From NCBI GenBank assembly GCA_963169805.1, contig CAUJDY010000063.1, positions 5,479-69,478 on the forward strand: a stretch of DNA of 64,000 nucleotides, given 5' to 3'. Positions 51,275-52,126 of the stretch are shown here, in pieces. Both the position numbers and the translations under genes were made by a program. Source of the stretch: Bdellovibrionota bacterium (GTDB lineage Bacteria; Bdellovibrionota; Bdellovibrionia; Bdellovibrionales; JAEYZS01). Position 1 is the stretch's first letter; the number at the start of each line of letters is the position of its first letter. The notes beneath the pieces were generated by a model. It was not told where the DNA came from, ran no database searches, and saw only the letters and a list, made by a program, of their open reading frames with translations.

Positions 51275-51324
51275 AAAAGGTACCTGGTCACTTTTGAGAA
51301 TCATAGGGGTTATTTTTGATTTGA
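51275..51324. repeat. left REP-like inverted repeat
   Basis: aaaaggtacctggtcacttttgagaatcataggggttatttttgatttga. It begins 5 nt after the stop of the 1210-aa gene and ends 5 nt before the RAYT stop. Confidence 0.85.
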
Positions 51325-51329
51325 ACCTC

Positions 51330-51965
51330 TTAATATAATTCTGACTCTAAAGAACTTTTGTTTTTTGAAAATCTACACAATGGTAATTTGAATGCAGCTT
51401 TTTTTAGCGCCTTCGATATTTGCTTTTTATGAATTTCTAAGGGAGCTTGATTTATCCAATTCAAATTTTCAAAATAATCTTCGTAGAGATAACTATCCTC
51501 GATAGGAATGATTTGAGGCTGACGACCTACAAGCCCATGAAGTGTTGAGTATTTATAGTCCTCTGCAAATTGAACTAACCCAGCTTCAACAGGATTTCGG
51601 TAAACATATTTATATACATTTAGAAATTGATGATCATTTGAAATACGAGTGCGATAAAATCTATTTCCATAGTTTTGATTAATCTTTCCAGCAGAAGAAT
51701 TTATCGAACGGCTTGTTTCTTTCATGAAATAGCACATTGCCTCACTCATATTATTTTTTGGAAAAGTAGCCAGTAAATGAAAATGATTATCCATTAAGAC
51801 AAAACTATGAATCTTTACACCGAATGCAAATGCAATAAAATATAACCAACTCTCATAAATAACCCATGCCTCAGATATCGGAACAGAGAACCAACTTCTA
51901 TTATGACTTCTAGCACCTATAAAAAATGGACTATCCGGGCAAGGCAAACATCTCTTTCGTGACAT
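51330..51965 (-). CDS. REP-associated tyrosine transposase (RAYT; Y1_Tnp/IS200-like)
   Basis: HUH motif 'NHFHLLA' and catalytic-Tyr helix 'YVYRNPVEAGLV'. Start placed at M37 of the longest ORF ('MSRKRC...'), which gives a typical size of about 210 aa. Confidence 0.8.
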   Translation of the reverse strand: MSRKRCLPCPDSPFFIGARSHNRSWFSVPISEAWVIYESWLYFIAFAFGVKIHSFVLMDNHFHLLATFPKNNMSEAMCYFMKETSRSINSSAGKINQNYGNRFYRTRISNDHQFLNVYKYVYRNPVEAGLVQFAEDYKYSTLHGLVGRQPQIIPIEDSYLYEDYFENLNWINQAPLEIHKKQISKALKKAAFKLPLCRFSKNKSSLESELY

Positions 51966-52076
51966 AATGATATCAACAAGAGCAATTTCATTGCCAGCTA
52001 AAGATAGAATAAAACAACTCAATACCACAAACTCATCCGAAAACCGGAATCGCCTCCAAACTTTCAAAATCAAAGC

Positions 52077-52126
52077 TCAAATCAAAAATAACCCCTATAA
52101 TTCTCAAAAGTGACCAGGTACCTTTT
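52077..52126. repeat. right REP-like inverted repeat (overlaps the 3' end of the RND gene)
   Basis: Its reverse complement differs from the left repeat at one position (gaatTatagg vs gaatCatagg). It contains the last seven codons and the stop of the RND transporter. Confidence 0.85.

Follow-up and report, generated by a model that had tools for sequence, protein, structure and literature searches.

The association of REP (repetitive extragenic palindromic) sequences with RAYTs (REP-associated tyrosine transposases) is the best-studied case of transposase domestication in bacteria, and nearly all experiments on it have been done on gamma-proteobacterial systems with GTAG-tagged hairpins. The literature on such REPtrons reportedly also includes Nunvar 2010 and Ton-Hoang 2012. 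In the present work we analyse a stretch of 64,000 nucleotides (nt) from a Bdellovibrionota bacterium (contig CAUJDY010000063.1; the whole stretch is called the window below), in which a RAYT-like nuclease gene of the HUH/Y1 kind is bracketed by two 50-nt inverted repeats. From our analysis it appears likely that this locus is of the REPtron/TIRtron type, i.e. a single intact and presumably vertically maintained RAYT-class HUH nuclease gene that lies between inverted cognate repeats. Elsewhere the repeat is found without the gene, either as a single arm or in inverted, hairpin-forming doublets that resemble REPINs (REP doublets forming hairpins).

Two properties of the described systems are used throughout the text. 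The Y-x-x-x-N-P motif is the signature of TnpA-Y1 class 2, to which RAYTs belong, IS200 transposases having Y-x-x-x-Q (Quentin et al. 2018, PMC6006769), and subclass 2.1 of this class is prevalent in the former delta-proteobacteria (PMC6006769). In TnpA-REP of E. coli residues W94, Q95, E100, H101 and R104 have been reported as the readers of the GTAG tag (PMC6006769).

The components of the locus, in coordinates of the window, are as follows.

51275..51324, plus strand: left inverted-repeat arm, located 3' of the nuclease gene at 5 nt from its stop, starting 4 nt past the TAA of a Hint-module gene; it is composed of the core AAAAGGTACCTGGTCACTTTT and then GAGAATCATAGGGGTTATTTTTGATTTGA.

51330..51965, minus strand: RAYT-like HUH/Y1 nuclease gene, 211 amino acids (aa), with its ATG at 51965.

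52077..52126, minus strand: right inverted-repeat arm, 111 nt 5' of the nuclease start codon.

This anatomy is read directly from the DNA. A repeat search pairs the arms 51275-51324 (plus) and 52077-52126 (minus), 50 nt each and 752 nt apart, at 49 of 50 positions (98% complementary), precisely as had been claimed in an earlier note on this region. A 46-nt arm string is found at 51279-51324 (plus) with no mismatches and at 52077-52122 (minus) with one, and has no matches in 100 shuffles. The whole gene-plus-arms unit comprises 852 bp and occurs once in the 64-kb window. The longest mechanical open reading frame (ORF) of the nuclease gene runs over 51330..52073 (minus) from a TTG start and has 247 aa; an alignment of 36 family sequences, where the relatives begin with MPRK or MARx, sets the start at the ATG at 51965, the protein beginning MSRKR.

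By its sequence, fold and tyrosine motif the nuclease is RAYT-like and not IS200-like. The two motifs pointed out in the earlier note are indeed there: HFHLL occupies residues 61-65 of the 211-aa protein, the HUH motif being N60-H61-F62-H63, and the tyrosine helix YVYRNPVEAGLV occupies residues 120-131, with Y120-V-Y-R-N124-P125 as the tyrosine motif. Pfam Y1_Tnp, the profile proposed in that note as a check, recognises the nuclease with 30.8 bits at a cut-off of 23, and the NCBIfam model REP_Tyr_transpos (NF047646) matches it with 67.2 bits over model positions 11-146, compared with 19.9 bits for the IS200 model. The sole match of a phmmer search against all PDB chains is E. coli TnpA-REP (4ER8), aligned over both the HUH and the tyrosine regions. 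An AlphaFold (AF2) model built from the family alignment has pLDDT 92 and pTM 0.89, and in a Foldseek search of PDB it again finds 4ER8 first (E 3.6e-9, 160 columns, TM 0.73 on target), followed by the IS200, IS608 and ISDra2 transposases at E about 2e-5 over about 105 columns. The assignment to the RAYT-like class follows from the two profile scores, from 4ER8 as the best match of both sequence and fold, and from the Y-x-x-x-N-P motif; the alternative named beforehand in the earlier note, a classical IS200 TnpA, is disfavoured by profiles, phmmer, Foldseek and tyrosine motif alike. No tnpB partner of the nuclease was found. A C-terminal extension of about 70 aa past the core is conserved family-wide and helical in the AF2 model; in the Pfam scan, which returned Y1_Tnp only, no domain was matched there, neither a helix-turn-helix (HTH) nor Bac_DnaA_C. 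We also tried to place the nuclease in the subclasses of Quentin or of Bertels, and its motifs match none of them cleanly; the closest published groups are probably TnpA-Y1 subclass 2.1 (Quentin et al. 2018) and Group 1 (Bertels et al. 2017).

The nearest other protein in a search of 5.8 billion sequences is 56% identical to the nuclease. The search brought up about 248 relatives with a length of about 212 aa, the named ones coming from Bdellovibrio, Pseudobdellovibrio, Bdellovibrionales and Oligoflexia, and a profile search of 1.84 billion representatives gave 429 matches at E <= 1e-30, a number that rises to 9197 at E <= 1e-10. For the nuclease and for the TrpRS of the window alike, the nearest relatives that carry a name are metagenome-assembled genomes of Bdellovibrionota, Bdellovibrionales or Oligoflexia. 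In the 36-sequence alignment NHFH and YKYxYxNP are invariant and the mean column identity is 56% over all 211 positions; the invariance of the catalytic residues, taken with this identity, indicates purifying selection on the nuclease family. B. bacteriovorus and Bdellovibrio sp. HCB274 carry a homologue at the same place, divergent from mutS. Three paralogues (L023, L049 and L058), 40-51% identical to the query and each with its own arm variant, are located on contig JACXTT010000001.1 (707 kb). There is no sign of recent self-copying of the nuclease gene, and no near-identical second copy was seen at any locus. As a separate observation, two other sequencing runs contain the identical element on short contigs only (L002, 1494 nt; L003, 942 nt); L003 and one end of L002 stop a few tens of bases beyond the arms, which agrees with assembly graphs being broken at the repeat.

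The association of the gene with the repeat is a property of the family, and it is observed directly. The best inverted pair was sought around each homologue at 80 metagenomic and 3 genomic loci, of which 73 (70 metagenomic) had enough flank. Such a pair above threshold, 17-66 nt in length, accompanies homologues 33-56% identical at 62 of the 73 assessable loci (60 of the 70 metagenomic ones). The arms lie mostly one on each side, about 25-240 nt (mostly 25-170) 5' of the start and about 0-165 nt (mostly 0-110) past the stop. Most pairs have in common the core (T)A(A/G)A0-3-GGTRCC-N-GGYNCC-TTTT, and the consensus of 102 arms reads c.aaaAGGTaCC.GgTtCCTTTT; a weaker box, GCGT[CT]A, follows some 28 nt deeper in, and the window arms have GGGGTTA in its place. 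Several relatives (L041, L044, L049, L034, L055) carry two tandem cores per arm. In B. bacteriovorus there is a 38-nt pair starting AAAAGGTACCTGCTTACTTTTG, and AAAAGGTACCTGCTTACTTTTGCA... is found on both sides of the homologue.

In the window the repeat unit starts with GGTACC, which opens an imperfect dyad, AAAAGGTACC-T-GGTCACTTTT, and continues with about 30 more conserved bases. Averaged over the family arms, 5.2 of 9 positions pair on the core dyad axis, compared with 2-3 on shifted axes, and the window arms keep 7 of the 9 pairs. A perfect palindrome core of 6-12 bp, in some relatives 8-12 bp, is present in 24 of the 102 arms, one example of which, AAAAGGTGCCAGGCACCTTTT, folds at -8 kcal/mol. 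Between the window and the 56%-identical relative the 3' arms have 85% identity over 48 nt and the genes only 63% in DNA, so that the arm, being more conserved than the gene, is under its own constraint. An Rfam scan of the arms revealed no known RNA family, only sub-threshold matches of microRNA type caused by the long hairpin of the doublet described next, and a promoter and terminator scan of 51100-52300 revealed nothing above chance and nothing inside the arms.

The repeat extends beyond the flanks of the gene. At a distance of 11 kb from the nuclease locus the window contains a doublet without a gene, with these parts.

40083..40144, plus strand: arm B1 of the gene-less doublet; over 49 nt it has 88% identity with the arms that flank the nuclease.

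40168..40228, minus strand: arm B2 of the doublet, which begins directly after the trpS TAA (GTC TAA GGTACC...).

These inverted arms (40083-40228 as a whole, with a 24-nt spacer) fold to a long hairpin that has a perfect 30-bp base, at -44 kcal/mol and z = -12. The doublet and 13 further copies in a related genome (see below) bear out the claim of the earlier note that the gene is part of a local repeat family and does not merely have two matching flanks.

Presence and absence of the doublet at the trpS site could be observed directly in genomes located by a TrpRS homologue search, namely a sister (81% identical) and two outgroups (73-74% identical). The sister genome is syntenic with 33.7-53.9 kb of the window at 66-74% nt identity, and its trpS is followed by the same hydrolase-like gene after a 97-nt spacer that has no arms. 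The junction reads ...GTC TAA / GGTACC...(138 nt)...GGTACC / TTTTATGGTCTTAG... in the window and ...ACG TAA GCGTTGTAAAATCTTAG... in the sister, and at the orthologous trpS-hydrolase spacer the doublet is absent in the two outgroups also. Since all three genomes are without it at the exact spot, the doublet has been either gained or lost, and the simplest reading would be its insertion in the lineage of the window right after the native TAA. A candidate remnant of an old arm 3' of trpS in the outgroups (TACCAAGGTCGCAATTTTTT) was dropped, as it was not significant with nhmmer profiles.

The second junction is found at the nuclease locus itself, where the right arm overlaps an AcrB-family RND (resistance-nodulation-division) pump gene, 52104..55151: the stretch 52104-52126 (minus) encodes the last residues (KK)VPGHF and the TGA stop at 52104-52106. 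The pump ends with ...SRLENKKSEKHLLHTKNSAT in the sister and with ...SRFESKK/VPGHF in the window; after the shared ...KK the sister protein continues SEKHLLHTKNSAT, and the difference begins exactly at the arm, from which we conclude that the arm rewrote the C-terminus of the pump. At the DNA level the junction is GAAAATAAAAAATCAG in the sister and GAATCTAAAAAGGTACC in the window, the arm being joined after an out-of-frame TAAAAA; it follows that the T with its A-run belongs to the target side and that GGTACC is the end of the repeat. The 21-kb syntenic stretch of the sister has no nuclease homologue. The variable region between the two genomes spans 46686-52158 in the window and 1789-3679 in L101; in the window it takes in the nuclease element, the Hint-module gene (1210 aa) and the final part of a large protein, and in the sister a 277-aa DDAH-family gene that overlaps the pump 3' end. 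A simple empty site for the 852-bp unit was ruled out, because the sister carries the DDAH gene at the position of the Hint gene plus element, and the history was therefore a larger replacement.

A genome-collection scan with the strict 19-base pattern GGTACCNGGTCNCTTTTNNGAAT over GTDB representatives, the source genome not being among them since the four matches of the window to this pattern did not come back, yielded 13 copies on 9 contigs (L005-L017) of the metagenome-assembled genome (MAG) Pseudobdellovibrionaceae AS-MESO-3CA.221. These copies share AAAAGGTACCAGGTCGCTTTTCNGAATTGAC and then diverge, and one of them abuts the genome's own nuclease homologue (50% identical). The spacers of its doublets are unrelated, and what spreads in AS-MESO-3CA.221 has the look of one 31-nt arm rather than of a REPIN. 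Of 33 long loci from other relatives, 8 contain their arm in further copies, which number 11 over about 290 kb, and low-copy repeat families of such size have been reported for RAYT groups 1 and 4 (Bertels et al.). We also noticed in AS-MESO-3CA.221 that a G+C-rich hairpin is often present 5-30 nt past the 31-nt arm, in some cases with a T-run (L007, L013, L017), the layout in those cases being gene, TAA, arm and terminator-like hairpin. One more match was recorded in the window.

18942..18964, minus strand: possible degenerate core fragment, CCTGGTGCTTTTCAGAATTGACTT, antisense in a 355-aa ORF (18315..19382, plus strand); nhmmer core profile E = 6e-4.

The fragment resembles the inner half of the arm in AS-MESO-3CA.221 and has no GGTACC end; it may be a relic or a chance match, and its status is uncertain.

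The copies tend to lie at gene ends. If the window and AS-MESO-3CA.221 are taken together, a long ORF reads into the arm, in the arm's orientation, in 13 of 16 assessable copies, and in 10 of those 13 the stop is a TAA 3-6 nt ahead of GGTACC. Next to metagenomic homologues an ORF reads into 66 of 124 arms, and 36 of these 66 ORFs have the stop at -2 to -6, in the form of a TAG whose G also belongs to GGT or of a TAA followed by 0-3 A. It was noted before that ORFs beside GTAG REPs often receive a TAG stop from the REP end (Di Nocera et al. 2013, PMC3733652), so the stop-codon coupling is common to these systems rather than new. Many copies read CTAAAAGGTACC, i.e. they are preceded by CT, the dinucleotide cut by characterised TnpA-REP enzymes (Corneloup 2021, PMC8266576), and it would be logical to suggest that this CT is tied to cutting of the TnpA-REP type.

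We infer that this enzyme moves the repeats, and we extend to it, also by analogy, the catalysis and the single-strand substrate of its relatives. As in the TnpA-REP proteins of E. coli, Stenotrophomonas and Marinomonas and in IS608, the nuclease would bind the repeat on single-stranded DNA and cleave it through Y120, with a metal held by H61 and H63; the strand would then be rejoined elsewhere, by which repeats may be gained or lost as the gene stays put. A new copy attaches directly 3' of a T with an A-run behind it (TAA, TAAAA), and it is in this way that copies come to abut or replace the stops of the genes that read into them. We may even suggest, as a speculation to which we give a small chance of being correct, that across Bdellovibrionota a domesticated HUH nuclease writes a non-GTAG, GGTACC-ended repeat beside T+A-runs, with the inner CTTTT acting as a guide that pairs with an AAAAG target as in IS608, and that the repeats would thus come to lie at TAA/TAG stops as a selectable module of gene 3' ends, which rewrites C-termini (as in the RND pump) and builds hairpins between convergent genes.

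A number of our observations weigh against the REPtron/TIRtron interpretation. The single arms of the window fold at -1 kcal/mol, like shuffles; the idea that each arm in the window is a REP hairpin was accordingly rejected, both strands of each arm folding no better than shuffled sequences, and for the same reason a hairpin substrate is not evident except in the doublets. In a canonical REP a stable palindromic hairpin of 20-40 nt carries 5' GT[AG]G at its foot, and here the tag is (C)TA[AG]/A-run and then GGTACC, with no GTAG; in the pairwise alignment with 4ER8 the GTAG-reading W94, Q95, E100, H101 and R104 of E. coli are replaced by Y, G, R, T and S. With 67.2 bits the protein does not reach the 80 bits that NCBIfam sets as the equivalog cut-off for REP_Tyr_transpos. 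The nuclease gene is missing from the syntenic region of the sister, which means that its locus is not a stable one in this lineage, and the 64 kb of the window contain only 4 arms in addition to the one doubtful fragment. The three doublets of AS-MESO-3CA.221 are located between convergent genes and enclose unrelated inner sequences, often a terminator-like hairpin.

On an alternative view, the 852-bp unit could be an autonomous insertion sequence (IS) that moves whole, the gene-less doublet being its derivative as a MITE, a miniature transposable element with inverted repeats. Terminal inverted repeats, here of 50 bp, around a gene of a transposase family make up the classical IS layout, the doublet with the same arms behaves as an insertion, and the syntenic sister is without the gene at this place, the DDAH gene replacing the Hint gene and the element. 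Nevertheless, copy number and divergence make an IS quite unlikely: the window has one copy and no locus has a near-identical second one, the best non-self protein among the 5.8 billion sequences is 56% identical, the paralogues that share a contig differ in their arms and reach only 40-51% identity with the query, and the synteny with mutS is kept in two Bdellovibrio species. In addition, Y1 transposases of IS200/IS605 are without terminal inverted repeats and the nuclease is closer to RAYT, and single arms far outnumber gene-sized units in AS-MESO-3CA.221.

Another explanation sees in the arms host cis-elements of gene 3' ends (3' untranslated region, termination or protein-binding modules), with the Y1 protein as a domesticated sequence-specific binder or processor of little or no transposition activity, so that the stop coupling would reflect function and not target choice. 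The ORFs reading into 13 of 16 copies, 10 of them with TAA 3-6 nt before GGTACC, the 36 of 66 stops at -2 to -6 beside homologues, the terminator-like hairpin that often follows the arm in AS-MESO-3CA.221, the conservation of the arm above that of the gene and the low copy number would all agree with it. However, three related genomes whose flanks are otherwise conserved do not have the trpS doublet, so copies come and go; the arm in the pump follows an out-of-frame TAAAAA within coding sequence, and this speaks for a target defined by sequence rather than for a stop function; the coupling with stops was already reported for GTAG REPs (Di Nocera 2013) and is not specific for this family; and no terminator- or promoter-like signal above chance was seen at the window arms. 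On balance we regard a host cis-element with little or no transposition as doubtful. As for the inverted repeat being a chance or local duplication artefact unrelated to the ORF, the few copies in the window would fit it, but with no match in 100 shuffles and the same gene-plus-arms layout in about 60 independent relatives this idea is refuted, and we give it practically no weight. The reading that we prefer is that of a RAYT-class gene with its cognate repeats.

The surroundings of the element deserve a brief description. The left neighbour encodes a 1210-aa Hint-module protein, and its stop is the following feature.

51268..51270, plus strand: TAA stop of the Hint-module gene, inside ATCTAAAA, which is common, in inverted orientation, to both outer flanks of the element.

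The earlier note had described the gene as wedged between the Hint gene and the RND pump, and both neighbours were named correctly; to this it can be added that the right arm overlaps the pump 3' end. The Hint stop precedes the left arm by 4 nt. Short direct repeats (45972-46262, and 46152-46183 with 47823-47854) join the start of the Hint-module gene with the gene upstream, which suggests two neighbouring paralogous giant surface-type proteins in this region. Just 5' of the Hint-module gene, at 47514-47648 (plus), there is a weak Rfam L10_leader match (28.8 bits at a gathering score of 44, E = 0.2), most likely due to chance. A separate inverted repeat at 32571-32672, with 46-nt arms that are 72% complementary and 10 nt apart (TATGACCTACTTAATACC...), is unrelated to the nuclease arms.

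In our literature search no paper was found that links RAYT or REP to Bdellovibrio, and the genus is not mentioned in Di Nocera 2013, in Quentin 2018 or in the searchable part of the supplements to the latter. The kind of system is already known, and, as far as could be checked, the family-wide arm consensus and the junction are undescribed. The locus and its approximately 430 cluster representatives offer a compact and well-conserved out-group system, which has a different tag, a GGTACC end and an added C-terminal domain. An arm that is more conserved than its gene, and a clean empty site at trpS that fixes the junctions, make the target and guide rules of a non-GTAG RAYT testable with short oligonucleotides. 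For annotation, the repeat accounts for odd C-terminal tails, for repeats that abut TAA stops and for contig breaks at repeats in MAGs of Bdellovibrionota.

Among the known systems, the transposases of the IS200/IS605 group (IS608, ISDra2) share with our nuclease the HUH/Y1 fold, and they too insert beside a short specific sequence (here T plus an A-run) with no obvious target duplication. They differ in having Y-x-x-x-Q where our protein has Y-x-x-x-N-P, distinct subterminal hairpins where our element has inverted-repeat ends, and multiple near-identical copies, frequently with a tnpB, where our element is present once in the window and has no tnpB. TnpA-Y1 subclass 2.1 (PMC6006769) is similar in its HUH of the NH[YF]H type and differs in length (a median of 238 aa compared with 211 aa here), in the C-terminal HTH/Bac_DnaA_C domain, which was not detected here, and in the tyrosine motif, YIELNP or Y[IV]HLNP compared with YVYRNP.

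With the REPtron, as represented by E. coli RayT/TnpA-REP (4ER8; PMC8266576), the locus shares the nuclease fold with HUH and Y-x-x-x-N-P Y1 motifs, a gene, found once in the 64-kb window, that stands between inverted copies of a repeat with further copies dispersed elsewhere, and the position of the repeats at gene 3' ends, where they can supply stops and where many copies here are preceded by CT. In Pseudomonas and Stenotrophomonas genomes several RAYT/REP pairs are kept, and contig JACXTT010000001.1 with its three paralogues is similar in this respect. Unlike the REPtron, our system is without the GTAG tag and without conservation of the residues that contact it, its arms are 50 nt long, bipartite and form no stable single-arm hairpin in the window, its protein has a conserved C-terminal extra part of about 70 aa and scores below the NCBIfam equivalog cut-off, and its copies are counted in tens at most and not in hundreds. 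The one doublet of its type, 40083-40228, resembles a REPIN (Bertels and Rainey 2011, PMC3116915) in being made of two inverted arms with a short spacer, folding to a long hairpin and being absent at orthologous sites; the doublets of AS-MESO-3CA.221, with unrelated spacers at convergent gene ends, look in contrast like two independent arms.

TIRtron/TIRYT systems (Di Nocera 2013, PMC3733652) also consist of a RAYT-like gene between long terminal inverted repeats that are not GTAG hairpins, and they give rise to moderately abundant repeat families found as singles, dimers or clusters; their common GGGGWSAS motif is not in our arms, which have GGGGTTAT. The RAYT/REP arrangement claimed in the earlier note thus stands as to the RAYT-like gene and its cognate inverted repeats and needs correction as to the repeats themselves, which are not canonical GTAG-tagged stable palindromes and fit TIRtron/TIRYT better.

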